This document shows positions 14,611 to 57,309 of a DNA stretch of 64,000 nucleotides, one piece after another. Location: the NCBI GenBank assembly GCA_945876035.1, contig CAMCMU010000022.1, positions 7,176 to 71,175 on the forward strand, given 5' to 3'. A program made the position numbers and the translations under genes. The first letter of the stretch is position 1. Each line of letters begins with the position of its first letter. The DNA is from Schlesneria paludicola DSM 18645 (lineage in GTDB: Bacteria > Planctomycetota > Planctomycetia > Planctomycetales > Planctomycetaceae). Under the pieces are notes generated by a model that saw only the letters and a list, made by a program, of their open reading frames with translations, ran no database searches and was not told the DNA's origin.

Positions 14611-16611
14611 GTGCCCGCCAAATGGATTGCGTGGAATCAAGTCGCCAACTTGATTCCTGCGGATGATGCTGGTCGGATGATGGCGCTGGTTGAGCGTCTG
14701 ATTGCGACGGCAGTCGATGCCGTTTCTGTCCAAGACTTCTTCCGTCAACAACTTCCAGAGATGGCAGCCGAGCTCGGCGTGACCGGAGCGGGCGTGATGG
14801 AGCGGCCTCCTGAGTGGATCACCCTCGCCCATTCAGGTCGCTGGAGCGAGATCTCCATTCCAAAACCGCTTCTCGCCGATGTCTTGGACAAGGACTCCGG
14901 TGTGGCAACGATTTTGGAAAACACGGCCAAGGATTCGTTGATCGCTGTTCCCCTCAGAGTTCGCGCACAAACCGGCATTGTCCTGACTTTGACGGGGCGA
15001 ACGATCTCCGAGGACGTTTTGCCGCTAGCGTTTTTTTTGGGCAGAGCGATCGGGGGATGCCTCGATGTCATTGCAGATCGACATCGGTTGTCTCAACGGA
15101 TTGATCGATTGCGAAGCATCTTAAAGATTTCCCACACGCTTTCCTCCATTCGAGAGACTCAACCGCTCCTCGAATCGATTGCGTTTGAGGCCACTCGATT
15201 GCTTGATTGTGATCGCGCCAGCATTTTTTTATGGGACCGCGAGCATCACGAGGTCATTGCCTGCCCGGCTCTCGGCGTGGCAGGCGATTCCTTACGATTG
15301 TCGGACAAAATCGGCATCGTCGGCGATGTGATCCATACGGCGAAACCGCTGCGGATTGACGATGCGTATAACGACGCGCGCTTCCATCGTAAAGTGGATC
15401 AAGCCAGTGGTTATAAGACTCGAAATTTACTCTGTATTCCCTTGCTGGATGGCGACAACACGCTTCTGGGCGCGTTTGAGGTAATCAATAAGAATTCCGG
15501 CGTGTTTACCGCGGAGGATGAGATCACATTGCTGGATCTGTCGACACCAGCGGCGGTTGCTGTTCAAAACACACGCGAACGCGAATTGCTACTCAGGTCA
15601 CACCACCAATTGACGGAACAGGTCACCAAGGGAGCCTCAATCATTGGCCAGAGCCAAGCCATGCAAGCCATGCGGAGTACAATTTGCCGTCTGGCGGAGA
15701 CAAACCTTCCGGTGTTGATTCTCGGCGAAAGTGGGACCGGAAAAGAGGTGGTTGCACAGTCATTACACTATCAGGGACCACGCGCGCAACGCCCCTTCAT
15801 TGCCGTCAACTGTGCTGCAATCACAGAAACTCTGCTGGAGAGCGAACTGTTCGGCCACGAAAAGGGGGCTTTTACGGATGCCCACGAAATGCATCGAGGA
15901 AAATTTGAAATTGCCGAAGGGGGGACGCTTCTTCTGGACGAAATCGGCGACATGAGTTCCGCTGGCCAAGCCAAACTCTTAAGAGTCTTAGAACAAAAAG
16001 TCATCACTCGCGTCGGTGGATCACAGACAATTCCGATCAATGTCAGAGTCCTTGCCGCAACGAATGCTCATTTGGCGGATGCGGTTCGCTCTAAGAAGTT
16101 TCGCGAAGATTTGTATTTTCGCCTGAACGTCGTCACGCTCGAACTTCCTCCTTTGCGCAATCGGGCCGATGACATTTTGCCGCTTGCCGAATACTTTCTG
16201 AAAGGCTTCGCCGTACAAGCCCGACGCCCGCTACTGCAACTGTCTGTCGCAGCGCGTCAACGATTGCAAGTTCACACGTGGCCCGGAAATGTGCGTGAGC
16301 TCAGAAATTTAATGGAGCGAGTCGCGTTTCTGGCTCCTCATGACACGGTGGACGCCGAGGACCTCGCATTTATTCTCAGCCCTGAAGAAAACCGCATGCA
16401 CGAACCGTCTCTCGATTTTGGATTGGGAGAGGCGACCATTGTCTTCCAGCAGGAATTTATCCGTCGGGCCATCAAACGCGTTCGTAATAATATGAGCGAA
16501 GCCGCACGGTTGCTCGGCTTACATCGTTCCAACCTGTATCGCAAAATGGGGCAACTGGGAATGAGCGAGGTCGCTGGCCGCGAAGACGACGATTCGAATT
16601 TGATGAGCTAG
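14611..16611 (+). CDS. GAF-domain sigma-54-dependent Fis-family transcriptional activator
   Basis: GAF (CDRASIFLWD...NLLCIPL...EVINK); Walker A GESGTGKE; ESELFGHEKGAFTDA; LLDEIGD; FREDLYFRLNV; WPGNVREL; C-terminal HTH (AARLLGLHRSNLYRK). Start may be ATG 14677. Confidence 0.93.
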   Translation: MPAKWIAWNQVANLIPADDAGRMMALVERLIATAVDAVSVQDFFRQQLPEMAAELGVTGAGVMERPPEWITLAHSGRWSEISIPKPLLADVLDKDSGVATILENTAKDSLIAVPLRVRAQTGIVLTLTGRTISEDVLPLAFFLGRAIGGCLDVIADRHRLSQRIDRLRSILKISHTLSSIRETQPLLESIAFEATRLLDCDRASIFLWDREHHEVIACPALGVAGDSLRLSDKIGIVGDVIHTAKPLRIDDAYNDARFHRKVDQASGYKTRNLLCIPLLDGDNTLLGAFEVINKNSGVFTAEDEITLLDLSTPAAVAVQNTRERELLLRSHHQLTEQVTKGASIIGQSQAMQAMRSTICRLAETNLPVLILGESGTGKEVVAQSLHYQGPRAQRPFIAVNCAAITETLLESELFGHEKGAFTDAHEMHRGKFEIAEGGTLLLDEIGDMSSAGQAKLLRVLEQKVITRVGGSQTIPINVRVLAATNAHLADAVRSKKFREDLYFRLNVVTLELPPLRNRADDILPLAEYFLKGFAVQARRPLLQLSVAARQRLQVHTWPGNVRELRNLMERVAFLAPHDTVDAEDLAFILSPEENRMHEPSLDFGLGEATIVFQQEFIRRAIKRVRNNMSEAARLLGLHRSNLYRKMGQLGMSEVAGREDDDSNLMS

Positions 16612-24152: not shown

Positions 24153-24550
24153 CGCGCTCCCTGCCGTCATGGCGAGAAAAATCTTGCCTCCCGCTCGGGC
24201 GCAAATCGCAGGCCGTCAATCGCTCCCTGCGCGGACGCTGCGGGCGGTCAGCGTGCCGGTCTTTCGTTTCAGCGTGTGGTGTATATGATCAGTGCTCAGA
24301 TAGAATGACGGATGATCTGATCCGAGTGGATGTCACACATCCCCCGCGAGTGGGGAATTGATTGAGACCCGTTAGGGAGAATTTCGTTGAAGCAGCAAGT
24401 CGGTTTTGGACTTCAATTTCTGGTTTTAACCGCGACACCATTAATCTCATGGTGGCAGATTCAATTTGGATTTTCTTTGATCTGGATGCCGGGGCTTTTG
24501 GCGTGCTCGGTGGTGCTGTTTTGGATCGGCACTCGGATGAGGGAATCGAA

Positions 24551-27500
24551 ATGAGTCAGCACGACTCCTCCAAGTGCCGAATTTCACGACGAGATCGAGG
24601 GCTTTTTTTTGTTTTGGGGACCCGGCTCAGTCGTTCTTTTTCAACTCTTGCCCTATTGATGATCCGTCTTCGTTATGTGTTAATCCTGGCCAGCACTTTG
24701 GTGGCACTGGCGGACGAGCCTACGGCGAAACCGATGCGAGAGCATGCCGCAATCGAATCCGATTCCAGTATGCTCAAAATATTCGGAGCGATTGAGGAGC
24801 TTCTGGACGACAAACAATGGACGGCTGCGGTTGATCGATTGCAGGACATTTCTCAGACGCATGGTCGGTCACTCGTGTTGGCTCATCCCGGGCAGGCCGG
24901 CGGCGTGGCCGTTTATTTGAGTGTCGGCGTGCGCAGTCAGATGATTCTTTCCAGACTGCCGCCGGAGGGATTGGCGACCTATCGCAGCAAGGTTGACCCA
25001 CAAGCCAAACGCTGGTTTGAAAACTGGCAACGAACCCGTGATACGAGCGAACTAGCGCGCATCGTACGAGAGACGTACGTCAGTGGCTACGGCGACAACG
25101 CTCTGTGGGCTCTGGCGGAGGATCGCTGGGATCACGGTGACTTTGCCTCAGCACGACATTACTGGTCACAAATCCTGCCTCTGCCGGAAAACATTCCCGC
25201 CACGGACGTCCTCACGGAGTTACGATATCCTGATAGTGAGCTTGATCCGGCGGCGGTTTCGTCCCGTATCATTTTGTGCTCATGGATGCAGGGTCAGCAG
25301 ACGTTCGCCGAGGATCAGTTGCGACGATTTGAGGAGCGATTTCCGGTGGCGCAAGGTCGGCTGGCAAGCCGGCAGGGGCGGTTTGTGGATTTGCTCAGGC
25401 AAATCTTTGACGAGTCCTTGAAAGAGGAACGTCGCGACGTCGCTTCCGAAGTCGCGACGTTCGCGTTGACTTCGGAGCGAACGCAAATCTTGCCAAGCCC
25501 CGTCGATCTCGGAGCAGCACGATGGGACAGGCCACTGATTCCGTATCAACTACCCGGCTTGGAATCACCCGAATCTCACCCGAATCGGCAGTCGCTGAGC
25601 ACTCATCCCGTTGTTTACCGCGATATCGTTTTGGTGAATGATGCCGATTCAATTTCTGCATTCAATTTGTGGACAGGCGAAGCGGCATGGCCGAACGAAC
25701 AAGGTCTGGCCCAGATCTATCCTCCACTGCCCGATCAACCCTCGGTCGCTCCGTCCCTCGCCTGTGTCGGCGTTCCGTGGTTCACAATGACGCTGGCCGA
25801 TGGCAAGCTCTTGGCTCGAATGGGTTCGCCCGTGACGCGTCAGGCATCCCAGGAGTTGCGAGAGCTTTCGTGCGACCTTGTGTGCCTCGATTTGGAGCAA
25901 GGGCAAGGAAATCTGGTCTGGAAGATCTCGGCCGATGAATGGCAGGCCGATGAGCGGGAACCCTGGCGATTTGAAGGGTCTCCAGTGGTTCAGGATGGAC
26001 GGGCATTTGTGATCCACACGCGTACTCGGCCACAACAGGAATTTGCGGTGACGTCTCTGGATTTGGCCACCGGCAAGCGATTGTGGACGCGATCGATCTG
26101 CACATCGCGGTCGACGATCAGTGCCCATCTGAACCGGGTGAGTCATCTCTTGCCAACCTTGGGCGCTGGCAAAATTTTTGTTTCTACCGATGCGGGGGCC
26201 ATTGTGGCCCTCAATGCGCGAGACGGGGAAATTGAGTGGGCGGTGACCTACGAGAGTCGAATCCCGGCGGATTCCGTTGACCAGTCCGATGATTCAAAGC
26301 ACGCTTTAGTTCCTGCCATGTTTCACAATGGTTTGGTGTTCGTCGCGCCCAATGATTGCGATCGACTGTTCTGCATTGAGGCGGATTTCGGGCAGGTCCG
26401 GTGGCAGAACAGACATCCGCACGGCGAGCGATGGAGGCATCTTCTGGGGGTCATTCAAGACGGCAGCGTTTCCAGACTGATTGTCAGCGGTGACTCACTC
26501 TGGTCCATCAACGGAGACACCGGCAAGGTTTTGAACAGGCACCTTGCGACGGAAGCTGTCGACCAAGGATATGGACGCGGGGTGTTGACCCAAGATGCCA
26601 TATTCTGGCCCACGCGTGAGGCACTACAGATCATTGACACGAAGACCTTTCAGCCGCGACGCAACGTCCTACTGCATACTCCCGACTCGACCAAGACGGG
26701 TGGTAACTTGACCATAGCGGCAGGCACCATGCTTGTCTCTCAAGCAGATCAGCTGGTTGCCTACGGCGAGTACGCCCTACTGAAAGAACGATTAAATCGC
26801 GGTCTTTCCGTGCATCCAGAAAGTGATGATTTCCGTTTGCGACTGGCGGAGATTGAAGTCGCCGAGGGAAATTGTCAGGCCGCCGTTACCATCGTCCGTG
26901 AGCGAGCTCCGGTAAAACATCCAGACCTTTCTTTTCGAGGCGGACCGGATCCCCGCCAACGAGCTCGCCTGCGAGACATCTTCCGGAAGTCTGCCAGCCG
27001 GGAGCGAACGGCAGGACATCTGGCGGCAGCGATCCCGTTGTTGACCGAGCAACTGGATCTGACGATTGAGCCTCGTGACAGAGTCAAGCTTCTATTCGAG
27101 TTGGCCGGAACAGAACGCGCGGGTCAACGGATTGCAGAGGCCGTTGCGGATTGTCAGCGGATTCTTGATGACGCCACGCTGAGCTCGTTGATGAACTCTG
27201 AAAGTACAGCCGGCGCGCGGGCTTCGGCAGAAATCCGCAATCTGATCCACGAGCACGGACGGATCGTTTACGAAGCGATTGAGCGGCGAGCGGAAAACGA
27301 TTTGTCGGCCAGTATCGCCGCAGGCGATACAGGCCGACTGAGACAGACACTCCAACAATTTCCCAACGCGGAATCGACGGAGCGTGGTTGGTTAGAATTG
27401 GCTCAACTCGAACAACAGGCCGGTCACCTTTCCGCGGCCTGCTCGATTCGAGCCCTATTGACTGAGTGGGAACCGATTGCCTTTAACCGTTCTTCTGCGA

Positions 27501-28954
27501 TGGCCTTATGGGCGATCACTCTCGAAAATTGCGGCTATTGGAACACGTCTCAACAAGTCTGGAAACGCCTCGTGGATGAAGTGAGTTTGGATGGTCCGGT
27601 ACGTCGCGGCGACGTGATTCGTCAAGCCTCCGAGCTCGCTCGGGAGCAATTGTCGCGTGCGGAGTATCGCTCTTTTTTAAGCGAGGACGAATCACCGCCT
27701 TCGTTTCTGAATCGATCTTGGAGTGTGAACTGGGGTGGCAACCACATCTCTCGACAGGATGTTCCGGATTCCTCCTCGGTGCAAGCATTCGTTCCCGAGG
27801 GGAGTCCTCCGTCAACATCCCATGCCTGTGTGTTGCTCTGTCAAACATTCGGGGCGGAGTCTCTTTTGGAGTGTCGTGATCGCCTGTCGGGGACGCTGCG
27901 ATGGGATCAAAAAATTTCGGCGAGGCCTCACTGGTTTGCCTATGCGGAGACGTGCCTGCTGGTCGCCAGCGGCCACGAACTCTCCGGACTGACATTAGAG
28001 GAGGGTACTCCCCTGTGGCACGTCGTCTTCAGCAGTGAGATGCCGGATACGAAATCGCCCGCGGAAGTTCAGTGCTATTATCATGCCCCGTGGATCCTCA
28101 GTTACAGTCGGCATGCGGGCGTCCAACGCATCAATTCACGAACCGGTGAAATCGTCTGGAAATATGCCTGGCCAGGGCGATTGCAAGGCGAATGGCCCTG
28201 CGGTCCGCATCGGCTGGGACTGCAAACACTGCATCCCGACAGAACCCTCATGCTGGACATTGCCGCAGGGTCACCGGTGATTGAATTGCCCGGTGTTTCG
28301 GAAGCGTGGCGTTCGCCTCCGGTGATGGATCGACTCGGTCGTGTCGTTCTTGTGGCGAATACGCGTCGCGTGGAATGTTATCAAGGAACCAATTCAAAGC
28401 CGCGGTGGATCTTTTCTGGGGGGATGTCATTCGCGCATCTCGATCCGGTCATTGGGTTGCAAGGCGACCGGCTATTGCTCACCGTTGATGGAACCACGTT
28501 GATCGAGATTGATGCTGAAAACGGCACTCCCAAATGGTCATCAGGCTTAGTTGACCTGCCGTTGGTCGATCCGCCAAGGCAGTTCAGCGTTAGAGAAAAT
28601 TCCCTGTTTGTTGCCGGGCGTGGCATGCTGAGATGCGTCTCACTGTCGGATGGTCAACGTCTGTGGGAAACTTTTCTGGGCCGTACGGAAGAGCAGTGGC
28701 GTACGGTAGCCTGTGGTCCGTTAATTGCCGCATGGCCCCTCTCACCACGAAAGTCACAACCGGTGTCGATCGTCTGGTGCGATGCCCGAACCGGCCAAAT
28801 CGTGCAACGCACAGCGCTGCCGCTCGAAGCGGATTTTGTGGACGTCATCCGTGACGAACACGGAGTGATTGTCTGCACCGATCGAAGTGTTGCCGCGTTG
28901 ATTTCATCCCCCCGTAAGGCCATGGCCGCGAGTCACTCCCATGGACAGCCGTAA
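24551..28954 (+). CDS. Giant PQQ-like beta-propeller / TPR envelope protein
   Basis: Many PQQ-type repeats (LDLATGKRLW, LNARDGEIEW, DRLSGTLRW, INSRTGEIVW, IDAENGTPKW, VSLSDGQRLW) and TPR-like helical blocks; signal peptide if the start is ATG 24659. Confidence 0.88.
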   Translation: MSQHDSSKCRISRRDRGLFFVLGTRLSRSFSTLALLMIRLRYVLILASTLVALADEPTAKPMREHAAIESDSSMLKIFGAIEELLDDKQWTAAVDRLQDISQTHGRSLVLAHPGQAGGVAVYLSVGVRSQMILSRLPPEGLATYRSKVDPQAKRWFENWQRTRDTSELARIVRETYVSGYGDNALWALAEDRWDHGDFASARHYWSQILPLPENIPATDVLTELRYPDSELDPAAVSSRIILCSWMQGQQTFAEDQLRRFEERFPVAQGRLASRQGRFVDLLRQIFDESLKEERRDVASEVATFALTSERTQILPSPVDLGAARWDRPLIPYQLPGLESPESHPNRQSLSTHPVVYRDIVLVNDADSISAFNLWTGEAAWPNEQGLAQIYPPLPDQPSVAPSLACVGVPWFTMTLADGKLLARMGSPVTRQASQELRELSCDLVCLDLEQGQGNLVWKISADEWQADEREPWRFEGSPVVQDGRAFVIHTRTRPQQEFAVTSLDLATGKRLWTRSICTSRSTISAHLNRVSHLLPTLGAGKIFVSTDAGAIVALNARDGEIEWAVTYESRIPADSVDQSDDSKHALVPAMFHNGLVFVAPNDCDRLFCIEADFGQVRWQNRHPHGERWRHLLGVIQDGSVSRLIVSGDSLWSINGDTGKVLNRHLATEAVDQGYGRGVLTQDAIFWPTREALQIIDTKTFQPRRNVLLHTPDSTKTGGNLTIAAGTMLVSQADQLVAYGEYALLKERLNRGLSVHPESDDFRLRLAEIEVAEGNCQAAVTIVRERAPVKHPDLSFRGGPDPRQRARLRDIFRKSASRERTAGHLAAAIPLLTEQLDLTIEPRDRVKLLFELAGTERAGQRIAEAVADCQRILDDATLSSLMNSESTAGARASAEIRNLIHEHGRIVYEAIERRAENDLSASIAAGDTGRLRQTLQQFPNAESTERGWLELAQLEQQAGHLSAACSIRALLTEWEPIAFNRSSAMALWAITLENCGYWNTSQQVWKRLVDEVSLDGPVRRGDVIRQASELAREQLSRAEYRSFLSEDESPPSFLNRSWSVNWGGNHISRQDVPDSSSVQAFVPEGSPPSTSHACVLLCQTFGAESLLECRDRLSGTLRWDQKISARPHWFAYAETCLLVASGHELSGLTLEEGTPLWHVVFSSEMPDTKSPAEVQCYYHAPWILSYSRHAGVQRINSRTGEIVWKYAWPGRLQGEWPCGPHRLGLQTLHPDRTLMLDIAAGSPVIELPGVSEAWRSPPVMDRLGRVVLVANTRRVECYQGTNSKPRWIFSGGMSFAHLDPVIGLQGDRLLLTVDGTTLIEIDAENGTPKWSSGLVDLPLVDPPRQFSVRENSLFVAGRGMLRCVSLSDGQRLWETFLGRTEEQWRTVACGPLIAAWPLSPRKSQPVSIVWCDARTGQIVQRTALPLEADFVDVIRDEHGVIVCTDRSVAALISSPRKAMAASHSHGQP

Positions 28955-29010
28955 AGTCATCGAGACTTGCTGTCACGGAGATTAATGCCTTGGCGTGGAA
29001 GGTCGATTGC

Positions 29011-31233
29011 ATGCACAACAGACGCGAGAACGATGACCAGACGGACCAACGGACTCTTGAAGGCACGCTGTGTCAAGATCTCGATTCCGTGGATCGCTCG
29101 CGTGAAAGCAGCATGCTGATGGGGAAGGCGCCCGCTGCCGTGCCTGGTTTCCGAATTCTCCAGTCTCTCGGAGAGGGAAAATATGGCTCGGTTTGGCTGG
29201 CTCGGGAACAAAATACGGGGAAACACGTCGCCATCAAGTTCTATACCCATCGTCGCGGAATCGATTGGTCACTTCTGGGCCGCGAGGTGGAAAAACTCGC
29301 CGTTCTTTACACCTCACGTAACATCGTCGGGCTGCTCGCCGTCGGTTGGGATCACGATCCCCCGTACTACGTCATGGAGTATCTGGAAAACGGATCGCTT
29401 GCGCCGCGACTGGCGGCCGGCCCACTTTCCTCGCTCGATACGATTCGGATTGCAACGCGAGTCTGCCAAGCTCTGGTTCATGCACACGGCAGTGGAATTT
29501 TGCACTGTGACTTAAAACCCGCCAATATTCTTCTCGATCAAGATTTCGAGCCGCGGTTGTGCGACTTTGGACAATCCCGCATGGCGGATGAAAACCGCCA
29601 TGCCTTGGGCACATTGTATTACATGGCGCCAGAACAAGCGGACCTCAAGGCGGTTCCGGATGCGAGATGGGATGTGTATGCGCTCGGGGCTCTGGTTTAT
29701 CAGATGTTGACCGGATCGATTCCGTTTCGTACGACGGATACGGATCTACGATTGAGTGCGGCCACGTCTTTGGAACAGAGACTTGGTATTTATCGGCACA
29801 TCGTCGAACAAGGGCCGAAACCGTGCGAACATCGGCGCGTGGCTGGCGTCGATCAACAGTTGGCAGAAATTGTTGACAGATGCTTGGCATCCGATCCGGC
29901 GAAGAGGTTCCCCAATGCCCAAGCGGTGCTCGATCGGCTGATGACACGCGAGCGATCGAGGTCCCGGCGTCCTCTTGTTCTTCTCGGACTGGTCCTCCCT
30001 TTATTGTTGATCTTCGCCATCGCTCCGCTGGCGGATCAAGCCATGCGTGATGCCATCAACACGACACAACGCAGTTTGAGCAAGCGGGCGTTGGAGAGTG
30101 ATGTGCTGACCGTCAACCTCTTGTCTGAGAGCATCAAACGCGACATCGACGATCGTTTGGCAGAATTGGATTCGATCGCCTCCGCGCAGGACCTGCGCAC
30201 GTCTGTCATCGAATTCGCCTCAAAGCCGATGGATGCGCGAGGTCCCTTGTGGGATCTCCTTGACGGCATCAAGAAAGAAAATGATAAACGGTGGACCCGA
30301 CTGGAGAGACCGGCGGATGATAGTTGGTTTCTGTTAGACGCCAATGGCTTCCAGCGTTGGCGAGACGTACGCAGCCTGTCTCTGGATCGCTCGTTTGCGT
30401 ATCGCGATTATTTTCACGGAGGCGGATTTCATTATTCTGAAGGGAACGTGCCGTTGGGTTTGTCGCCGATCACGTCGGCTTACGTCTGCGTTCCCTATCG
30501 CGGAACCACCCAGCAACACGACTTGATTGCGCTTGCGGTCCCGGTGTTTTCGCTGGATGACGACGCACAGGTGATTGGAGTTTTGGCGAGATCACTCTCG
30601 CTCAGTAGCTTGCTTCTCGATTACGAAAAGAGCCTACGGTCACAGCGTGTCGATGAGGTGGAACGCAAATTTGCGATCGTTGATAGCCGGCTGATTGGGG
30701 GTACGAGGCAGTGGAAACTATTGGCTCATGGCTGGATGACGAAGGACAATCTGGACCGACTCCACAAGCAAGATCCAAACGGCATCGAGAAGCTGAGTCT
30801 GTCCGACGTTGCCGATCAGGAAGTCCTGTCCGATCTTGAGTTGCTGGTGCAGTCGACGGAATCCGGTGAAGATCGACACGATTTTGATCGTACCGAGAGC
30901 TACATCGATCCTGTCGGACAACTGGATTCCAACACCTATGGCGGCGAATGGTTGGCGGCCTTCAGTCCGATTGGCAAACGCGGCTGGGTGGCCATCGTTC
31001 AAGAACGGAAGGAACCTGTTCTGCGGCCTGTCGAGCAACTGGAATCCCGCCTGATGGCGTGGGCGCTGGGAGCCGTTTTTGTTGTGGTCGCCCTTGTTGG
31101 TGGATCCTGGTGGTTGATCGTGATGCTGATTAACGACTGGGGTCTACGTTGGATCTGTTTTTGGCGTCGTCCAGTACACAGCGCGAGGGGGAATACGTTG
31201 TCCATGACAAGCAAGGGGGCCGATAGTGCTTGA
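29011..31233 (+). CDS. Membrane receptor Ser/Thr kinase with extracytoplasmic dCache-like sensor
   Basis: GEGKYGSV, VAIK, HCDLKPAN, DFG, GTLYYMAPEQ; TM1 PLVLLGLVLPLLLIFAIAPLA; Cache-like segment (LLDANG, FAYRDYF, LIALAVPVF..VIGVL, GWVAIVQE); TM2; short tail. Confidence 0.9.
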   Translation: MHNRRENDDQTDQRTLEGTLCQDLDSVDRSRESSMLMGKAPAAVPGFRILQSLGEGKYGSVWLAREQNTGKHVAIKFYTHRRGIDWSLLGREVEKLAVLYTSRNIVGLLAVGWDHDPPYYVMEYLENGSLAPRLAAGPLSSLDTIRIATRVCQALVHAHGSGILHCDLKPANILLDQDFEPRLCDFGQSRMADENRHALGTLYYMAPEQADLKAVPDARWDVYALGALVYQMLTGSIPFRTTDTDLRLSAATSLEQRLGIYRHIVEQGPKPCEHRRVAGVDQQLAEIVDRCLASDPAKRFPNAQAVLDRLMTRERSRSRRPLVLLGLVLPLLLIFAIAPLADQAMRDAINTTQRSLSKRALESDVLTVNLLSESIKRDIDDRLAELDSIASAQDLRTSVIEFASKPMDARGPLWDLLDGIKKENDKRWTRLERPADDSWFLLDANGFQRWRDVRSLSLDRSFAYRDYFHGGGFHYSEGNVPLGLSPITSAYVCVPYRGTTQQHDLIALAVPVFSLDDDAQVIGVLARSLSLSSLLLDYEKSLRSQRVDEVERKFAIVDSRLIGGTRQWKLLAHGWMTKDNLDRLHKQDPNGIEKLSLSDVADQEVLSDLELLVQSTESGEDRHDFDRTESYIDPVGQLDSNTYGGEWLAAFSPIGKRGWVAIVQERKEPVLRPVEQLESRLMAWALGAVFVVVALVGGSWWLIVMLINDWGLRWICFWRRPVHSARGNTLSMTSKGADSA

Positions 31234-32998
31234 ACTCCTGATGCAAGGTGTGCCGACCTCCGATGTACAGCGGATGCTGCTGCTGCCAGGAAAAACATAT
31301 GCCATCGGCCGCGATGCCACGTCCAACATTTCGGTACCGTGGGAACGACTTCTTTCGCGGCGGCATGCGCATCTCAACGTTTATCCTGACCACGTGCAGA
31401 TCCATCGGCTTTCCTCCGCACGCAATCCGCTGTTCTTTTCCGGAGAGTCCGTCGAGTCGTGTCGTGTCGAAATCGGGCAACACTTTGTCATCGGTACAAC
31501 TTCATTCTCTCTTCTCGAGATTGAGTCCGCCGATTCGGCTGTTGTCCCGCCGGTCGAAGAGATTGCCTTCAAGCCCCAAGAGTTACGAAAAACACGGTAT
31601 CAGGATCCGGAAAACAGGCTTGAAGTTCTGACGCATCTTCCCGAAGTGATTTCCGGCGCCGCGACGGATGGCGAGCTGTTCCATCGATTGGTCAATTTGG
31701 TTCTCAAGGGTGTGGTTCATGCGGAGGCGGTGGCGATTGTCGCCGCCGACGGTGCCGCGATTGTCAACATGCTTCATTGGGACCGTCGCCGTGAAACCGC
31801 CGGCGCGTTTCATCCGTCGCATCGATTGGTTGTCGAAGCCTTGGAACGTCGGCATGCAAGTGTCCTCCACATTTGGGAAAAAAATGCACCTCAGCAGCAC
31901 GATCAAACACTGATTCAAGAATTCGACTGGGCCTTTTGCACACCTGTGCCAGGCCTCACCACCTCACCTACGGGGATTTATATTGCCGGTCGGATGGGAA
32001 AGACATGTGTTCCGGGAACCACTCTGTCTGATGCGTTGCTGCTGGAGGCGGATGTGAAATTCGTGGAGTTGATCGCCGAGATCATAAGTGCGGTGGTTCG
32101 TGCGCGGCGATTCGAGCGACAAAAAGCAGGGCTGCGGCAATTTTTCGCGGCTCCCGTATTGGCCGCCCTCGGCGATGAACTCGACACCACCTTGCTCGAG
32201 CCGAGTGAATGTGATGTCACAGTCATGTTTTGCGATCTCCGAGGATTTAGTCAACGTGCGGAACATGAGTCTGAAGATTTGATTGGCCTGTTGGAAAGAG
32301 TCAGTCGGGCATTAGGCGTGATGACGCACAACATTCTTGCTCACGGCGGCGTGACCGGCGACTTTCAAGGAGATGCCGCACTCGGCTTTTGGGGCTGGCC
32401 GTTTCCTTCGCCCGATGCCGCCGTGCATGCCTGCCGGGCCGCTCTGGCTATTCGCGCGGCATTTTCCAAGGCTGCGGCAGCGAAAAACCATCCTCTGGCT
32501 GACTTTGCGATGGGAATCGGAATCGCGCACGGTCGCGCTGTTGCCGGAAAAATTGGAACGGCAGAACAAGTCAAAGTCACCGTATTTGGTCCGGTCGTCA
32601 ATCTGGCAAGCCGATTGGAGAGTATGTCCAAACAGCTTCGCGTTCCGATCGTTCTTGATGAAGCCACAGCAAACATTATTCGATTGCGTTTGCCCCATTC
32701 GGAAGGTCGTCTGCGTCGGCTCGCTCGAGTACTCCCCTACGGAATGAAAACGCCCCTCGTTGTCAGCGAACTGCTCCCTTCGGAATCGGAGTTTCCGGAG
32801 TTGACCAATGCGCATGTCGCCGAATACGAACGTGGTGTCGAGTGCTTCATTGAGGGGCGATGGGACCTCGCCTATCGACTTCTTCACGGTATGCCTGCGA
32901 GTGACCGAGCGCAAGACTTTTTGATGCAACACATCGTGCAGCACAATCGCAGTTGCCCCAAGGATTGGACTGGAACGATCTGCTTGCCCGTCAAGTAA
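31226..32998 (+). CDS. FHA + GAF + class III nucleotide (adenylate/guanylate-type) cyclase
   Basis: FHA (IGR...LSRRHA...ARNP); GAF-like middle; cyclase core VMFCDLRGFS, FQGDA, IGIAHG, FGPVVNLASRLE. GTG start overlaps the kinase stop by 8 nt. Confidence 0.92.
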   Translation: MLELLMQGVPTSDVQRMLLLPGKTYAIGRDATSNISVPWERLLSRRHAHLNVYPDHVQIHRLSSARNPLFFSGESVESCRVEIGQHFVIGTTSFSLLEIESADSAVVPPVEEIAFKPQELRKTRYQDPENRLEVLTHLPEVISGAATDGELFHRLVNLVLKGVVHAEAVAIVAADGAAIVNMLHWDRRRETAGAFHPSHRLVVEALERRHASVLHIWEKNAPQQHDQTLIQEFDWAFCTPVPGLTTSPTGIYIAGRMGKTCVPGTTLSDALLLEADVKFVELIAEIISAVVRARRFERQKAGLRQFFAAPVLAALGDELDTTLLEPSECDVTVMFCDLRGFSQRAEHESEDLIGLLERVSRALGVMTHNILAHGGVTGDFQGDAALGFWGWPFPSPDAAVHACRAALAIRAAFSKAAAAKNHPLADFAMGIGIAHGRAVAGKIGTAEQVKVTVFGPVVNLASRLESMSKQLRVPIVLDEATANIIRLRLPHSEGRLRRLARVLPYGMKTPLVVSELLPSESEFPELTNAHVAEYERGVECFIEGRWDLAYRLLHGMPASDRAQDFLMQHIVQHNRSCPKDWTGTICLPVK

Positions 32999-49198: not shown

Positions 49199-50755
49199 CT
49201 AACGTGAATTCTCCTTGGGCGTTGTGTTGACCTCAGTCTTCAGTAGTTCCTTCATTTCTTCGACTATCTGCTTTGATTTATCGTCGTTCAAGTATTGTCT
49301 GATCAACTCCAACATGTCGTTACACAGACGCATGATGCGAGCCTCGCTTGCTCGATCTTTTCGAGCGATTGCCGCATTGACTGCAGGGACTCGAATCACG
49401 GCAAGCTTCTCTTCAAACGTCTTCACGCTCGGCAACTGTGGTATGCGGTCCAGTCCGGCGCGGACTTCTGTCCAATCACTTCGCCGTGCTGCAACTCGCA
49501 TCGAGGCAAAGTGTGTCGCCCGAATGGCCACTGCGTCGAGAAGTTGTTCTTGGAGCATCTGAACGTTGGCCTCAGCCGTCAACCGCGCCTCGTCGTCCGG
49601 AACATCCAAGCGAGTTTCGGCAATGCTTCCCTGTGCGAACGGAACGCGGGCCAAGAGATGCTTTCCGCTGTAGACAAACAGCCAGATCGTCGGCGTATCG
49701 CCGGCATTCGAAAGTTCCACCTGACCGCGTCGATCGGTGATCAACTCTTTTAACAGGTGTTCTCGGTGAGCCACGGAGTCGTCAGAATTGGGTATGAGCG
49801 AAGATTTTCGCACTTCGATCCGATGCGCTGCCAGCGGGATCGGTGGCTTTGTTTGAGCCATCAACTGCAGTCGAGTATTGAACCGATGTGGCCGCAGGCC
49901 CATCGCTAACGTTTCGACACGACCACGTTTCTTTCCACCGATCGGCGAACGCAGTCCGCTTTCCAAATGACAATTTGCATGGGATCCCTCCAATTCGGTG
50001 ACCGCTAGATACGTCCACGGGATTAACTGCAATTTTTCCAGTCGCTGCTCGCGGTTTCGAAATCCGATCACGGGCACAAAAAGATCATTCGGCCTGACCA
50101 GAGCGAGTGCCTCATCCAACACCGGTAGAGCACCGGCACGAAGCCGAACTCGTACGGCATCGCCCGCGACGTCTTCAACAATTCCGATTGGACGAAACAG
50201 CAAGTGACACAGCTTGAGTATTTCCAGAGCAAGATTACGCTGGTCGAGGACTACTTGGCCGACCGGTTCTGAGACGAATTGCATTTCCGGCTGCCACGAT
50301 CGCACATCAATTTGGTACCCCGGGTGTGCGGCCTGAAGCGATACCATAAACCAGACATCGATCCGCTCGCTCTGTTCCACGGCGATCCCCGCCCGTTGCA
50401 TCCATTGCTCCGGTGCCACTTGCATCAGCCCCCGCGCTCCCAGCGGGTCAACTCGAGTGGTTGTTTCGATTTGTAGGCTCCATGCTTCACCAATCAGCAG
50501 ACGCGCCAAGTTTCCAATCGGATTCGTTAGCGACGGTTGAGCGATCGATGCCTTCGCCGCCGAATCCATCGCGACAATCAAACGCACTTTATAGGGGCGC
50601 AGATCGTAAGCCAGATCCTCAAAAGGATCCTCCGCCTGAGCAGCCCGTGTGACGGCACCCAGTAGCAACGACAAGGCGAGCCACAGCCGCAGACTTGAGG
50701 TTTGTCCAGTCGTCGTTTTTCGTACTTGACGGATTTGGTATTTGTCGAGCCTCAA
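49199..50755 (-). CDS. Secreted hypothetical protein, last gene of the ExbBD-kinase cluster
   Basis: 518 aa; TTG start with GAGGGAG RBS, 21 bp after the upstream stop; signal peptide (LWLALSLLLGAVTRAAQA); beta-rich middle; helical C-terminus. Confidence 0.82.
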   Translation of the reverse strand: MRLDKYQIRQVRKTTTGQTSSLRLWLALSLLLGAVTRAAQAEDPFEDLAYDLRPYKVRLIVAMDSAAKASIAQPSLTNPIGNLARLLIGEAWSLQIETTTRVDPLGARGLMQVAPEQWMQRAGIAVEQSERIDVWFMVSLQAAHPGYQIDVRSWQPEMQFVSEPVGQVVLDQRNLALEILKLCHLLFRPIGIVEDVAGDAVRVRLRAGALPVLDEALALVRPNDLFVPVIGFRNREQRLEKLQLIPWTYLAVTELEGSHANCHLESGLRSPIGGKKRGRVETLAMGLRPHRFNTRLQLMAQTKPPIPLAAHRIEVRKSSLIPNSDDSVAHREHLLKELITDRRGQVELSNAGDTPTIWLFVYSGKHLLARVPFAQGSIAETRLDVPDDEARLTAEANVQMLQEQLLDAVAIRATHFASMRVAARRSDWTEVRAGLDRIPQLPSVKTFEEKLAVIRVPAVNAAIARKDRASEARIMRLCNDMLELIRQYLNDDKSKQIVEEMKELLKTEVNTTPKENSR

Positions 50756-50776: not shown

Positions 50777-53716
50777 CTAAGGTGTGTCCTGAGGATACCA
50801 AGACTGCAACGCCCATTGCTCGACATTGTCATAGGCATGCATCGGCTTGGCAGGCAGGCCGTAAAGATTTCGTCTCGCCACCAGAAATTCATCTACTTCC
50901 CACAAGGGAATGTAACGCGTCTCCGTCAGGAGATCGGCCATCAGTTTGTGCATTCGTTTAACCGCCGTCGGCCAATCCGTCGTGCGTTCGAGTTCGAGCA
51001 ACGAGTGTCGTGTTCGCTCGGGGAGCCCCTGAAGAGCCTCGACACCAGTGCCTGCTTGCAATGTCAGAAGTGGCCAGAGATCGACAATCGGTTCGACGAA
51101 ACTGGCGGTTCTGTAACAGAGATCCCACTCGTCGAGTGACTTGTCGTCGCTCGATTCGGAGTGATCGATCAAGGTGACATCCAGCCCGACTCTCTTCCAG
51201 TGCGGAATCATTGCTTGAACAATGGATCGCGAACTGAAATCCGCTGGACAACTGATTCGCAACGTGGGGAGAGTCCCTCCCAGATGCTTTTTGGCAGTGA
51301 ACGCGAGTGTTGCTGCCAACTGTGGATTGTAAACCGGTTGCTCAATCTGCTTGTTGTAACCGTAGAGGCGTGAGGAAAACGGGGCGGTGACGAGTCTCGC
51401 GTAGGATTCTGGGGCACCGATCAATACCACGTCTCGCAAGATCTTCTCTCGGGGAATTGCGTGGAGTAAGGCTCGACGCAATGCCCCGTCATGCAATGCG
51501 GCTGTTTTGGGTTGAAACACCAGAAAGTGCGACTTGGGTAACGCATAAGGCAGCACCACAAATTGGTTATCGCCCTGTAGAGCCTTCAGGTCATGGAGAT
51601 CGGCCAGAGGAAGCAGCGTCACTTCATCTCGCTGCAATCCCTGCAAGGCCTTCTCCCACGAGTCATATTTTACTTCAACGATCTGATCGATGAACCGTAG
51701 ACGCTCGCTTGTTGGCTGCTCGCGGACGCGGCGGTAGCGAGTCTGTCGATCGGTCTCGGACACAACAGAAAATCGCTGCAAGTCCGGAGCCGGATCTTGG
51801 TGTGTTAACGGCTTGGCCGTGAACGGGTCTTGCTGTACAGGGATGGCCATTTGCCAAAACGATTCAATACGCAACGGCAGTCGGTTGAAATAAAGCGTGA
51901 ACTCCGAGGGACTCTGTACTGAAATGCCGTCAACAAAACCGCTGAGACGTTCGTCGAAACGCGCGTTTTTCGGATCGAGTCGGGAGGACAAATCGGCATA
52001 GACGTCCGACGATGTGATTAACGGCCGTGATTCCCAAGACGCTCTTTTCAGATTCAGTTGAAAGCGGACGTGTCTGCCGAGATCCATCGGCTCCCATGTG
52101 TCAAAATACGCCGATTGATACCGCACATGTTGGTCGGGAATCCGGGATGGTTCGAATATTGTCGGAATGGAAATCAGCAGGCGGGCTCGTTCTTCGTTCG
52201 CCGTTTCAAACGGAGCCCCATTTGTCTTTTTGGATAAACCAAGAACGCCAACACGCACAATTTGGCATTTTTCGGTGAGCTGACGATGAACCTCCTTCAA
52301 GCCGGGTGTTTCTGGCCAAATCCGTGCAGCGCGATCAATGATTTCGAAGGCTTCTACATTGTCTCCGCGACGGGAGGCGTCTTTGGCCATCTCCATCGAG
52401 GCGGCTGTCAAGGCGAGCCATTCGTCAGTCCATTTCTTGACGACGGAATGATCGGGTTCGTAATTCGCAAGTCGATAAAGAAAATGCCTCGCCTGCCTGT
52501 ATTGCTTCCGTTCTACAAGCGATTCAATCAACTGATTGACCACCCGAGCCATTGGATTCACGACGCCGAGAAATTTTCTTTCCGGTGTCCAAATTTCGCC
52601 AAGCAAACGCAACGCACCTTCCAAGTCGTTGGCCCTTTCATGGGATTCGGCGTCTTTAAGTACGAGTTTCGCATAGACCTCTTCAAATTTGGGCCAGAAG
52701 GGAATCAGCACATCTTCCAACTGAGGTGGTGCGGGTCGCGGATAATCATTGGGCCGCACAAAGCGCAATGCCTTTCGCTTTGTTGCCAATTCCGTTTCCA
52801 ACTCTTTTATTTCGTTCGACAGTGGGCCGATAATACTGGAGATCTCGCCGGCGGCCTTGGCACCAAGATTGCCTTGCTTCTGCTCTGTTCGAAGCTGTTC
52901 TCGCTGAGCTTTCAATGCATCGAGTTCGGCGGCACTTGCTTTTTCGTCAGCCTCCAACTCGGCCTGAATGCGTTTGTTGTTCTCGAGGTGTCTCCGGTTC
53001 AGTAGAAGCATCAGATCGTAAGCCAAGGGCAATTGTTTTTCGTTGATCAATTGTTCCACACGGCGCAAGATCAGGTCTTCATAATAGACGACAAAGCGAA
53101 TTTTCTGGACGTCCAGTACATAGTCCGGATCGACGGTGTCGTCCAACACAGTGACCGCCAATTTTGCTGCGGCCTGCGTGGCTTTTTGCATTCGGTCTTT
53201 GGATGCCGCCAGCAGATCCTCTGGAATCTGTCGTCGTTCTTCCAAGCTCTGGCTTCGATCTCGCGAAAATTGTCGTTCGGCCTCCAATAATTGTGTGCGG
53301 TGGTAATTGCGCACGCGTGTGTAGGTGGCTTCCGCCTGTTTCTGTCGAAATGATAGACGGGCGATGGAATCAGGACGCGGCGAAATCGGTGCCACAAGAA
53401 GAACTTTTTCTGAAAGGAGCACCACCTCATCGAACGGCTTTCCTGTCAGCAACTCCTCCGCGGACGGCAGCGGCATTTCGTCGTACCGCGTGAGCGAGCT
53501 GTCGTCTTTGGGATCGTCCGCATGAGCCGGCAGATTCAGAAACTTGACCGTGAGAAGAAAATTCAATCCAAGGACAATCAGCAGATGTTTTTTTAGGATC
53601 CGTCGTGCCCGCAATCCGATTGGACGACGTCCATCGGTCGCCGCGGCCGCAGCACCAATCACGATCCCTTTCCGATGCGTTCTGCATACCGAATTATCTG
53701 CGTGCATACTCTTCAT
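50777..53716 (-). CDS. TPR/coiled-coil + family 5 extracellular solute-binding domain protein
   Basis: Signal/TM; long coiled coil; TPR-like helices; SBP_bac_5-like C-terminal half (ITSSDV, IDQIVEVKY, LRRALLHAIPREKI, WKRVGLDV, YIPLW). ATG 53716 overlaps the upstream TGA (ATGA). Confidence 0.85.
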   Translation of the reverse strand: MKSMHADNSVCRTHRKGIVIGAAAAATDGRRPIGLRARRILKKHLLIVLGLNFLLTVKFLNLPAHADDPKDDSSLTRYDEMPLPSAEELLTGKPFDEVVLLSEKVLLVAPISPRPDSIARLSFRQKQAEATYTRVRNYHRTQLLEAERQFSRDRSQSLEERRQIPEDLLAASKDRMQKATQAAAKLAVTVLDDTVDPDYVLDVQKIRFVVYYEDLILRRVEQLINEKQLPLAYDLMLLLNRRHLENNKRIQAELEADEKASAAELDALKAQREQLRTEQKQGNLGAKAAGEISSIIGPLSNEIKELETELATKRKALRFVRPNDYPRPAPPQLEDVLIPFWPKFEEVYAKLVLKDAESHERANDLEGALRLLGEIWTPERKFLGVVNPMARVVNQLIESLVERKQYRQARHFLYRLANYEPDHSVVKKWTDEWLALTAASMEMAKDASRRGDNVEAFEIIDRAARIWPETPGLKEVHRQLTEKCQIVRVGVLGLSKKTNGAPFETANEERARLLISIPTIFEPSRIPDQHVRYQSAYFDTWEPMDLGRHVRFQLNLKRASWESRPLITSSDVYADLSSRLDPKNARFDERLSGFVDGISVQSPSEFTLYFNRLPLRIESFWQMAIPVQQDPFTAKPLTHQDPAPDLQRFSVVSETDRQTRYRRVREQPTSERLRFIDQIVEVKYDSWEKALQGLQRDEVTLLPLADLHDLKALQGDNQFVVLPYALPKSHFLVFQPKTAALHDGALRRALLHAIPREKILRDVVLIGAPESYARLVTAPFSSRLYGYNKQIEQPVYNPQLAATLAFTAKKHLGGTLPTLRISCPADFSSRSIVQAMIPHWKRVGLDVTLIDHSESSDDKSLDEWDLCYRTASFVEPIVDLWPLLTLQAGTGVEALQGLPERTRHSLLELERTTDWPTAVKRMHKLMADLLTETRYIPLWEVDEFLVARRNLYGLPAKPMHAYDNVEQWALQSWYPQDTP

Positions 53717-56700: not shown

Positions 56701-57309
56701 ATCGGTCCCGTCCAATTTTGTGTCCGGAATCTCTTGCGATTCGGCGACGACACGACCGTCGAACAAAGACAAATCTTCCACAGGCTTGGGCATCGATGCG
56801 GAGGACTTAAGGGCCTCCCAGGCGTCATCCTCCAACAAGATGTCTTCTGGAGGCTTACGTCTCGAGGGTGCGGGCGCCTTCGTTTTTGTTTCGAGGCCAC
56901 TCGCCGACACTTCCGGAATTTTTGGAACGGGTGGGATTTTCGTTGGGGACGACGCTTGCTGAGGCGGCGCCGCAAGTTCATATTTCGTCTCCGTGTCGTC
57001 CGACCGAGGATCTGCGGAGTGCGCAGCATCGATGTAGTCCAGATCGACACTACCCACGCGAATCACATCTCCCGGTGTGAGCATCATCCGAGCCACGCGG
57101 ACACCGTTGACCTCGACTCCCCGTTCTGATCCGGCGGCCACTTCAAATGCCGTTTTGTTCCAACTGACGCGACAGTGCATGGTCCCGACACCCTCTTCGT
57201 CGATGCTCACATCGTTAAAAGCCTGGCGGCCAATCGAGAGGGGTTGTCGACGTGACAATTCTCGAACTTCCACCGAACCGTTTGAAAAATGGAGTTTGAG
57301 TGAGGGCAT
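53713..57309 (-). CDS. FHA + TM + TPR + PQQ-like beta-propeller protein
   Basis: N-terminal FHA fold (LSIGR...MHCRV...VNG...LTPGDVIRVG); Pro/Lys-rich linker; one TM (LVIGLASLGLLLLLVTGIFWFLI); TPR helices; repeats such as VDTGTGETIWRR, PDNGKLIWRH, IDMANGHEL. Confidence 0.9.
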   Translation of the reverse strand: MPSLKLHFSNGSVEVRELSRRQPLSIGRQAFNDVSIDEEGVGTMHCRVSWNKTAFEVAAGSERGVEVNGVRVARMMLTPGDVIRVGSVDLDYIDAAHSADPRSDDTETKYELAAPPQQASSPTKIPPVPKIPEVSASGLETKTKAPAPSRRKPPEDILLEDDAWEALKSSASMPKPVEDLSLFDGRVVAESQEIPDTKLDGTDQNALKSPKKHKTAAAFADAERVAVGVQSMSTRARPGEQDIVRSPLVIGLASLGLLLLLVTGIFWFLISREQSFRLYDRAVAESTDGKYAQAIASFEEFIQKNSSHSLRRFAERGLDKTLVQKEISGGSPAWKRGLEKLKLLISNHRKDSDFADLHSALFRFGEEISLGSAKSAESTHDADLLIVSDEACAILERYAEPTTPPTGTLTRIKLAKELAEKAIEKQKTFEAAVALMDAALAAGQPMTALSEREKLIRRFPEISSQKRVKEVLQKALDLERSVIAIDATEIAAETDDDTASVVTSALSLFHTRLRTEETSQDRFVYVIAKDCCYAVDTGTGETIWRRIVGFETRFFPILATGAQPSLLIHDARRQALLCCRPDNGKLIWRHQLAGKPRSAPLVQEGQIYLATEGRLLNRIALDSGTLTTTVRFSQDVIGPPAVSHDAQHLLIPGEMAMIYSLTLRPLAAAAMTFTDHAAGSIEASPLGMGRLLLLCENDKSDSAHLRIWDADKPSQPLPELNGSRVVGTVRDLPVIRGNQLVVASSNEHLAAFSVTDEPTRVELTAIGQYRVKGGYGGATYVALGPDQQLWSASSAFRRFDISADSIRMDPNATAEGIACQPLQISGQQFFVGRKASFHDAVIFSAVDRERMLSPWRTVLGAEPLEVTVSRDPESSIIVNEAGQIVSLGATRLKHGGIELKAATELDLPKNMRLPLFASRLHDGRIAVIAMGGSTSIWILNRIGQTDSTITLANGDTVEAPPVLLDEGLVLPLSGRLKWAPLGSTNKAVQDWIAPTEQNTASRWRYLLRLTGNELIACDDTGRLRHIQKRKGDRPYLAEISTLQLDVPIDVNPALNGDELFVVDSSGTLRQFKIPSFDVMGERTFVAPVRSLWVVGNSQLVWSGDDILHAVSAGKELSVRWSLSLANRQPAGSPVMWQDQLWLACRDGTVLAIDMANGHELQRLQQPQVLSLGLQIIGDHLFAIACDGTMYQMESKAQP

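Follow-up and report, generated by a model that had tools for sequence, protein, structure and literature searches.

An aspartate at the base-specifying position of a planctomycete class III nucleotide cyclase family points to a probable change in base selection

Within a 64,000-nucleotide stretch of DNA from Schlesneria paludicola DSM 18645 (contig CAMCMU010000022.1 of assembly GCA_945876035.1; hereafter "the window"), a gene on the plus strand at positions 31,226 to 32,998 encodes a 590-amino-acid protein that, judged from its sequence, is a genuine class III nucleotide cyclase and apparently an active one, in which the lysine that specifies the base in adenylate cyclases is replaced by an aspartate. 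It belongs to a family found in hundreds of Planctomycetia species, in which this noncanonical base-recognition residue is fixed and linkage to a sensor kinase is frequent. As the best explanation, to which we give a probability of roughly 45%, we propose that the protein is a cyclase under the control of a kinase and an FHA domain, with altered base selection and most likely a preference for GTP. Because Asp consistently stands at the Lys/Glu specificity position, the enzyme is probably not a standard producer of cAMP.

The class III cyclase homology domain (approximately residues 325 to 518; positions 32,198 to 32,779) matches Pfam PF00211 with an E value of 4e-14 and 53 bits against a cutoff of 21.9, and its best sequence matches in the PDB are Cya2 (2w01), OaPAC, CyaB, and CyaC. 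In Foldseek comparisons, the target-normalized TM scores of the domain were 0.85 for CyaC, 0.83 for CyaB, and 0.80 for Cya2. The preliminary description of this DNA had named both metal-binding Asp residues (in FCD and GDA) and the transition-state Asn and Arg (in VNLASR), and all four motif residues were recovered, align to solved cyclases, and are conserved. The first metal-binding Asp, D337 (32,234 to 32,236, within the FCD codons at 32,228 to 32,236), is found in 121 of 121 proteins of the close set, which comprises the window protein and 120 close homologs, and in 147 of 151 rows of the wider family alignment. The second, D383 (32,372 to 32,374), is invariant among the close homologs and present in 149 of 151 rows, while the Asn and Arg of the NLASR segment (32,600 to 32,614), N459 (32,600 to 32,602) and R463 (32,612 to 32,614), are kept in 147 and 148 of the 151 rows, respectively. 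A chance motif or a stretch that is not a gene was ruled out by the Pfam match, the fold, and the conservation.

The gene starts with GTG at 31,226, with an alternative ATG at 31,241, and homologs align from residue 1 (consensus MxxLxAQG). The protein has no transmembrane segment (maximum 19-residue hydropathy, 1.78), and its AF2 model has a mean pLDDT of 91.7. It is a soluble chain of five parts: an FHA domain, a GAF-like domain, a signaling helix, the cyclase domain, and a C-terminal helical domain. The FHA domain (approximately residues 14 to 98; 31,265 to 31,519) is matched by the Pfam models FHA and Yop-YscD_cpl, the former (PF00498) with 21.5 bits (cutoff, 20.7); the family profile matches the FHA structures GarA, Rv0020c, and 3gqs, and the phosphothreonine-binding residues G28, R29, S44, H47, and N67 are all at least 90% conserved in the family. 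The GAF-like domain (approximately residues 128 to 265; 31,607 to 32,020) was modeled separately by AF2 with a pLDDT of 90.8 and resembles the GAF domains of phytochromes, sensor kinases, and PDE5A in Foldseek, with E values of about 1e-4 and TM scores of only about 0.4 to 0.55; the Pfam search gave no GAF match in this region. According to DSSP on the model and to the sequence, a long signaling helix (residues 266 to 304) follows and then a short element, LRQFFAAPVLAALG, leading into the cyclase domain (32,021 to 32,179 for helix and element together). The family consensus in this region is FFSPxVLxAL, and we take the LRQFFAAPVLAALG element to resemble a cyclase transducer element. Behind the cyclase domain, the C-terminal helical domain (approximately residues 528 to 590; 32,807 to 32,995) is modeled with helices at residues 528 to 572 at a pLDDT above 95 and has G544, W546, D560, P578, W581, and G583 as conserved residues.

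HMMER alignments place D379 (codon GAC, 32,360 to 32,362), which lies in the motif G-D-F-Q-G-D-A four residues before D383, at the position occupied by Lys in adenylate cyclases and by Glu in guanylate cyclases: bPAC, OaPAC, and the Cya2-E488K fusion have their Lys there, and Cya2 has its Glu (tidEfmGD). The second specificity residue, T452 (32,579 to 32,581, in VTVFG), is located seven residues before N459 and aligns with the Thr of bPAC and OaPAC and with the Gly of Cya2. The alignments to solved cyclases therefore bear out the preliminary description in its assignment of both specificity positions, that is, in the replacement of the adenylate cyclase Lys by Asp and in the Thr at the second position. 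It had also proposed to look at the conservation of the Asp in the family, and here Asp379 occurs in 121 of 121 proteins of the close set and in 147 of 150 cluster representatives (50% identity), the other three having Glu, the guanylate cyclase residue that is absent from the window protein; Lys appears in none of the 120 close homologs and in none of the 150 representatives. Across 81 loci, the Asp379 codon drifts between GAT (45 loci) and GAC (34 loci) while the amino acid is kept, indicating purifying selection on the Asp codon. In a large search, the best 150 of 53,019 matches were all (150/150) members of this planctomycete cyclase family.

The residues around D379 have changed as well. 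Q381 (32,366 to 32,368), a polar residue two positions before the second metal-binding Asp, occupies a column in which Cya2 has Met and both bPAC and OaPAC have Ile; in the 151 family rows it is Gln in 82, His in 53, and Leu in 13, and it covaries with residue 452, for which we counted 78 Thr, 54 Gly, 12 Ser, 4 Asp, and 3 Asn. K450 (32,573 to 32,575), two residues before T452, is kept in 140 of 151 rows (93%) and aligned with a Lys of Cya2 (KYG). K450 could reach the base, where, by analogy with Cya2, it would be expected to support the acidic residue and not to act as a donor to adenine N1.

At least 554 species-level genomes contain a member of the cyclase family, with the same 590-amino-acid FHA/GAF-like architecture; almost all of these genomes are labeled Planctomycetota, and the gene behaves as a core gene across Planctomycetia. 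Its neighbors in the window are a Ser/Thr kinase and an aminotransferase. The kinase, a membrane protein of 747 amino acids encoded directly upstream on the plus strand (28,990 to 31,233; Pfam Pkinase, E value 2e-46), has its kinase domain at residues 55 to 313 and hydrophobic segments at 328 to 348 and 688 to 713, which enclose a region of about 340 amino acids without a Pfam match, presumed to be an extracytoplasmic sensor; the two genes share 8 nucleotides, from the cyclase start to the kinase stop codon. Of 62 informative loci, 32 have an orthologous sensor Ser/Thr kinase gene immediately upstream of the cyclase gene and in the same orientation, usually overlapping it or separated from it by less than about 200 nucleotides; these loci bear the labels Planctomycetaceae, Pirellulales, Thermoguttaceae, and Gemmataceae. 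No other gene is a conserved neighbor of the cyclase in the 81 loci compared, and roughly half of the loci lack the adjacency, the examined Schlesneria loci among them. A linked cyclic nucleotide receptor was found neither among the window open reading frames of at least 220 amino acids nor as a conserved gene in the 81 related loci. Both this negative result and the incomplete kinase linkage count against the explanation proposed here.

We propose a pathway in which the upstream membrane kinase would sense an extracytoplasmic signal and phosphorylate a threonine, either one of its own or one of the cyclase; the FHA domain would dock on the phosphorylated residue, and the resulting change would reach a cyclase dimer by way of the GAF-like domain and then the long helix. 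Of this picture, the analysis shows the domain composition, the catalytic residues, the alignment of D379, the conservation, the taxonomic range, and the gene linkage, whereas we infer the dimer, its substrate, the direction of regulation, and the target of the kinase. Each chain carries all six canonical catalytic positions and has a rebuilt base pocket, with the invariant D379 in place of Lys, Gln or His (Q381) in place of a hydrophobic residue, Thr, Gly, or Ser at position 452, and K450 beside it. In adenylate cyclases, the Lys donates a hydrogen bond to adenine N1, and in guanylate cyclases, guanine N1-H and N2-H2 donate hydrogen bonds to a carboxylate. Since the carboxylate of D379 could accept these guanine hydrogen bonds, a preference for GTP, with cGMP as the product, appears the most likely outcome.

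Several features are compatible with cGMP: the acidic residue at position 379, the Thr, Gly, or Ser at the second position, the occasional family members in which Asp has changed to Glu, and the alignment of Lys450 with the Lys of Cya2. The contact of Glu with guanine N1 and N2 is the main determinant in guanylate cyclases, and the second residue matters mainly for shape (PMC7384201). The latter ranges over Cys, Ser, Thr, His, Ala, and Gly in guanylate cyclases (PMC4215837), a range that includes T452 and the Thr, Gly, and Ser common in the family; T452 also lies within the Asp/Thr pair used at this position by adenylate cyclases. A literature search on the planctomycete cyclase family and on Asp at the base-specifying position of class III cyclases returned nothing relevant, and no characterized guanylate cyclase with Asp at this position was found in it. 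This negative result speaks against GTP, and so does the length of Asp, which is one methylene shorter than Glu and may fall short of guanine unless the base shifts or a water molecule bridges the gap.

Among the solved structures, Cya2 of Synechocystis PCC 6803 (PDB 2w01) is the closest relative, both by single sequence (55 bits) and in the family profile search, where a Cya2-derived chain scored best (98.6 and 97.6 bits). The two proteins, with about 27% identity across the cyclase domain, share the fold, the DLRGF and GD motifs, an acidic first specificity residue, and a Lys in the K450 column, and the D-G pair frequent in the family parallels the E-G pair of Cya2. They differ in the pocket, which has Glu, Met, and Gly in Cya2 but Asp, Gln, and Thr in the window protein, and in architecture, since Cya2 sits in the membrane and carries a CHASE2 sensor, whereas the window protein is soluble and has FHA and GAF-like domains. 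Glu488 of Cya2 is the aligned counterpart of Asp379, and the substitution E488K alone turns Cya2 from a guanylate into an adenylate cyclase (PMC5995499). This Glu is said to be helped by a supporting Lys (PMC6005667), which may be the one aligned with K450.

The alternative that fares best is that the protein is still an adenylate cyclase, in which adenine N6-H2 would donate a hydrogen bond to the D379 carboxylate, T452 or K450 would contact N1, and the product would be cAMP. The resemblance to class IIIb adenylate cyclases (CyaC of Arthrospira/Spirulina, CyaB of Pseudomonas aeruginosa, bPAC, and OaPAC) is considerable: the fold corresponds, with target-normalized TM scores of 0.80 to 0.85 and a fit to CyaC and CyaB no poorer than that to Cya2, the metal-binding and transition-state residues are the same, and a helical linker leads into the domain. 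The second specificity residue, Thr, is shared with bPAC and OaPAC and is a hallmark of class IIIb adenylate cyclases, which counts against the GTP reading. The mycobacterial enzymes Rv1900c (Asn/Asp) and Rv0386 (Gln/Asn) keep their activity with noncanonical pairs and are nevertheless mainly adenylate cyclases, and databases name the planctomycete family adenylate cyclase, by automatic annotation only. Against this, all aligned adenylate cyclases have Lys at the D379 position and the one natural guanylate cyclase in the alignments has an acidic residue there, and it is the charge at this position that sets the substrate in Cya2. In bPAC and OaPAC, the Lys is combined with Ile, whereas the planctomycete family combines Asp with Gln or His; CyaC and CyaB also carry Lys at the base-specifying position. 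Finally, the strict retention of Asp, with Glu as the sole alternative, argues that a carboxylate is needed, as a relaxed site would vary more. We therefore regard cAMP as an unlikely product, at about one chance in four.

It is less likely still that the protein is a pyrimidine or broadly promiscuous cyclase making cUMP, cCMP, or mixed cyclic nucleotides for housekeeping signaling, not for phage defense. The preliminary description had drawn a comparison with the Pycsar pyrimidine cyclases, and as a matter of chemistry this comparison stands: PycC and PucC enzymes are class III-type cyclases, and changes at and around the Lys-equivalent position give them other base specificities. In the cytidylate cyclase EaPycC, R142 lies four residues and Q144 two residues before the metal-binding D146, and Q144, the equivalent of Q381, is a CTP-specificity residue (PMC11224242); at exactly these positions the planctomycete family has Asp and then Gln or His. 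D94 is among the residues listed as selecting UTP in the uridylate cyclase BcPycC (PMC11224242), and residue numbering suggests that it occupies the same column as D379. Together with the Gln at the Q381 position, this makes pyrimidine or broad specificity chemically possible, and the PADLOC PycC models match with an E value of 3.6e-17 and score slightly above Pfam PF00211 (60.5 bits for PDLC00734, versus 53 bits). On the other hand, the placement of D94 opposite D379 depends on residue numbering, and by the same numbering, BcPycC Tyr50 and Arg97, which are said to narrow the pocket (preprint 10.64898/2026.08.12.744502), would match Phe335 and Gly382, both common class III residues. Purine cyclases are the closest relatives of known structure, and no PycC chain appears among the best 60 sequence matches in the PDB.

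Far less probable is a cyclase-like domain that has lost all or nearly all catalytic activity and serves as a scaffold or sensor: although a few family members lack catalytic residues (P0213, P0175, and P0207), the window protein and over 95% of the representatives keep the metal-binding Asp pair, the Asn, and the Arg, a pattern that indicates selection for catalysis. Membership in a Pycsar- or Pucsar-type antiphage system, the part of the Pycsar comparison that did not hold, is effectively refuted, in spite of the PADLOC profile match, which may reflect no more than generic cyclase-domain similarity, by gene context and distribution: these are two-gene defense systems with a cyclic nucleotide-activated transmembrane or TIR effector, whereas no CNB-TM or CNB-TIR effector adjoins the cyclase in the window or in the 81 related loci, and its phylum-wide occurrence with constant architecture, FHA and GAF-like regulatory domains, and a kinase partner is that of a core gene and unlike a defense island.

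Seen across the family, the odds lean slightly toward a core pathway of Planctomycetia that leads from a sensor Ser/Thr kinase through an FHA domain to a cyclase with an Asp/Gln-His/Thr-Gly pocket and yields a product other than cAMP, that is, cGMP or a cyclic pyrimidine. In the cGMP version, guanine would be recognized by Asp, a mode that is previously undescribed; in the more radical version, a cyclic pyrimidine would be an ordinary second messenger outside phage defense. To our knowledge, few bacterial cGMP pathways have been described, and cyclic pyrimidines have so far been tied to phage defense. The cGMP examples with a named function that we met in the analysis are single enzymes or a defense offshoot (Cya2, XC_0250, and the Pucsar cyclases). 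If the product is not cAMP, then cGMP or another cyclic nucleotide would be a general second messenger of a whole phylum, and an Asp-based rule would be added to the Lys/Glu code for annotating class III cyclases, under which the planctomycete family is at present labeled adenylate cyclase automatically.

The regulatory half of the protein has parallels of its own. As in the mycobacterial pairs of GarA or Rv0020c with Pkn kinases, the canonical phosphothreonine-binding residues are present and a Hanks-type kinase adjoins. The difference is that the FHA domain of the window protein is fused to a nucleotide cyclase, so that the output would be a second messenger. Cya1 of Synechocystis is also an FHA-cyclase fusion, probably with the canonical Lys.

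The cyclase gene (31226-32998, + strand) is an open reading frame of 590 codons whose product has no transmembrane segment and carries a class III cyclase domain at residues 330-475 (Pfam PF00211, E 4e-14, 53 bits against a cutoff of 21.9); no NCBIfam model covers the protein. It belongs to the class III cyclase superfamily, showing every defining feature tested here. The motifs quoted in the preliminary description were all recovered in place on the + strand, namely F-C-D with the metal Asp D337 (32234-32236), G-D-F-Q-G-D-A with D379 (32360-32362) and the second metal Asp D383 (32372-32374), V-T-V-F-G with T452 (32579-32581), and V-N-L-A-S-R with N459 and R463. The central proposal, that Asp occupies the base-specifying position, was borne out by HMMER alignments to solved cyclases, which are unambiguous around D379 (hggvtgDfqGDaal in the query, hggtidEfmGDgil in the Synechocystis guanylate cyclase Cya2, hggtidKfmGD in the Cya2-E488K fusion, ggevtKfiGDcvm in bPAC and OaPAC). 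D379 stands opposite the Lys of adenylate cyclases and the Glu of Cya2, and therefore lies in the Lys/Glu specificity column. T452, seven residues before N459, likewise proved to be the second specificity position, opposite Thr in the photoactivated adenylate cyclases and Gly in Cya2, and the rule invoked for the two positions (Lys-Asp/Thr versus Glu-Cys/Ser) is given in PMC6005667. At the first position the query thus has neither the Lys of adenylate cyclases nor, taken strictly, the Glu of guanylate cyclases. Cya2 is the best solved relative by single sequence (55 bits, HMMER), and a family profile built from 71 sequences scored highest against the Cya2-derived fusion 6fht and Cya2 itself (98.6 and 97.6 bits). 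For the AlphaFold2 model (mean pLDDT 91.7), structural superposition gives target-normalised TM scores of 0.80-0.85 against CyaC, CyaB and Cya2.

About 270 clusters matched the cyclase domain at E ≤1e-30 when 1.84 billion cluster representatives were searched exhaustively. All six catalytic positions, D379 among them, are invariant across the 120 database clusters nearest to the query (59-100% identity), and 147 of the best 150 representatives have Asp and three have Glu at the first specificity position, so the Asp is conserved family-wide, a check that the preliminary description had called for. Most of these 150 share the architecture of about 590 residues; the remainder are shorter, often fragments. 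Since the Asp codon drifts between GAT (45) and GAC (34) across 81 genomic loci, the residue itself is held by selection. The second position is more varied (Thr 78, Gly 54, Ser 12, Asp 4, Asn 3), and position 381, two residues before the second metal Asp and Ile or Met in the aligned cyclases, is polar in the family (Gln 82, His 53, Leu 13). Lys450, two residues before T452 and opposite a Lys of Cya2, is 93% conserved. The prevailing combinations at 379-381-450-452 are D-H-K-T (52), D-Q-K-G (52), D-Q-K-S (11) and D-Q-K-T (10): D379 and K450 are fixed while positions 381 and 452 (32366-32368 and 32579-32581) covary, His with Thr and Gln with Gly or Ser, which may reflect compensation inside one pocket or merely two subclades. 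In a small subgroup (representatives P0221, P0229 and P0255) Glu-Leu-Ser-Asn replaces Asp-Gln/His-Lys-Thr/Gly, with joint changes at the acidic position, at the Lys and at the second specificity position. Just after the second metal Asp, the segment G-F-W-G-W-P (G387-P392, 32384-32401) is almost invariant; the matching segment of Cya2, bPAC and OaPAC contains no Trp.

The base pocket is deliberately unlike that of an adenylate cyclase, and we tentatively favor a GTP-preferring cyclase producing cGMP, with a probability of roughly 0.45. This reading draws on the requirement for a carboxylate at the first position (Asp, rarely Glu, never Lys) and on the nearest solved relative, Cya2, in which E488K demonstrates that this position alone sets G versus A (PMC5995499). 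It also draws on structural work on guanylate cyclases, which indicates that base choice is dominated by contact of the Glu with N1/N2 and that the second residue mostly gives the pocket its shape (PMC7384201), and on the second residues of the family, whose T, G and S fall inside the reported guanylate cyclase range (PMC4215837). Lys450 adds a further parallel to Cya2, as the Lys aligned with it is presumably the supporting Lys described as aiding the Cya2 Glu (PMC6005667). We found no characterised guanylate cyclase using Asp at the first position and, in the literature, neither a report of Asp there in a signalling cyclase nor a paper on this family, whose database names (adenylate cyclase or adenylate/guanylate cyclase domain protein) are automatic. 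Against GTP stand this lack of a characterised Asp-bearing guanylate cyclase and the Asp side chain, shorter than that of Glu. That the product is instead cAMP seems unlikely, even though class IIIb adenylate cyclases likewise have Thr at the second position, and Rv1900c and Rv0386 are still adenylate cyclases despite odd specificity pairs; a product other than cAMP would heighten the interest of this Asp-bearing family. A pyrimidine or promiscuous cyclase appears less probable again. In its favor, pyrimidine cyclases differ at exactly the positions altered here: in EaPycC, R142 and Q144 precede the metal Asp D146 by four and two residues, and D94 of BcPycC is among the listed UTP-selecting residues (PMC11224242). 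More than 95% of the best 150 representatives retain both metal-binding Asp residues, the Asn and the Arg, and the query looks like an active enzyme; an inactive one is highly improbable. Least credible of all is a Pycsar-type defence cyclase, which fails at the system level, no cNMP-binding effector having been found near the cyclase in the window or related loci. Elsewhere in the family, P0213 has lost catalytic residues (second metal Asp to Phe, Asn to Ser, Arg to Val) and the transition-state Asn is Gln in P0175 and Glu in P0207; these representatives may be inactive paralogues.

Directly upstream of the cyclase lies a Hanks-type Ser/Thr kinase (28990-31233, +), whose TGA (31231-31233) and the cyclase GTG start (31226) give an overlap of 8 nt that suggests translational coupling. 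One database gene call (P0001, 585 aa) begins instead at ATG 31241; the earlier GTG is favored by homologues and by the model. The kinase contains an unassigned region of about 340 residues bounded by two hydrophobic segments, presumably an extracytoplasmic sensor. Among the 62 loci with sufficient upstream DNA, 32 have an orthologous kinase directly upstream on the same strand; they are spread over several orders, and the kinase is the sole neighbor conserved beyond a handful of related loci. The Schlesneria loci examined have no upstream kinase. In the cyclase itself, Pfam gives a marginal FHA match (residues 25-90). The canonical residues that bind phosphothreonine, Gly-Arg, Ser-x-x-His and Asn, are retained (G28, R29, S44, H47, N67), and FHA structures matching the family profile include GarA and Rv0020c. 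Residues ~128-265, modelled separately (pLDDT 90.8), match GAF domains in Foldseek at modest scores (E ~1e-4, TM ~0.5). The cyclase domain is preceded by a helix of 39 residues (266-304) and a short conserved stretch, FFSPxVLxAL in the family, and is followed by a conserved helical domain. Because the gene pair is conserved and the FHA site intact, we propose a model in which the sensor kinase would generate a phosphothreonine that docks the FHA domain, and docking would be relayed to the cyclase dimer by way of the GAF-like domain and the helix.

With each GTDB species represented by a single genome, at least 554 genomes encode a relative of the cyclase. The 80 best are mostly labelled Planctomycetota (Planctomycetaceae, Pirellulales, Thermoguttaceae, Gemmataceae), and the few contigs with other or generic labels are taken to be mis-binned. 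Three loci labelled Candidatus Kuenenia or Chitinophaga (L033, L035, L037) have orthologues that share about 50% identity with the query, as in Planctomycetaceae; these contigs are probably MAG sequences that were mis-binned or mislabelled, and they give no evidence of the family beyond Planctomycetia. The gene content of the window, which includes PSCyt/DUF1549-DUF1553 and DUF1501 genes, is likewise planctomycete-like. A 518-aa ORF (49199-50755, -) gave no Pfam match at E ≤1e-4. The 64 kb hold three Hanks-type Ser/Thr kinases, the other two at 8363-9994 (-) and 59735-62380 (-), and a GAF-containing sigma-54 activator (14611-16611, +). Two very large PQQ-type beta-propeller proteins are also encoded, one of 1198 aa with an N-terminal FHA domain (53713-57309, -) and one of 1530 aa directly upstream of the kinase-cyclase pair (24362-28954, +); a PQQ-propeller relative occurs upstream of the cyclase in just one further locus (L016).
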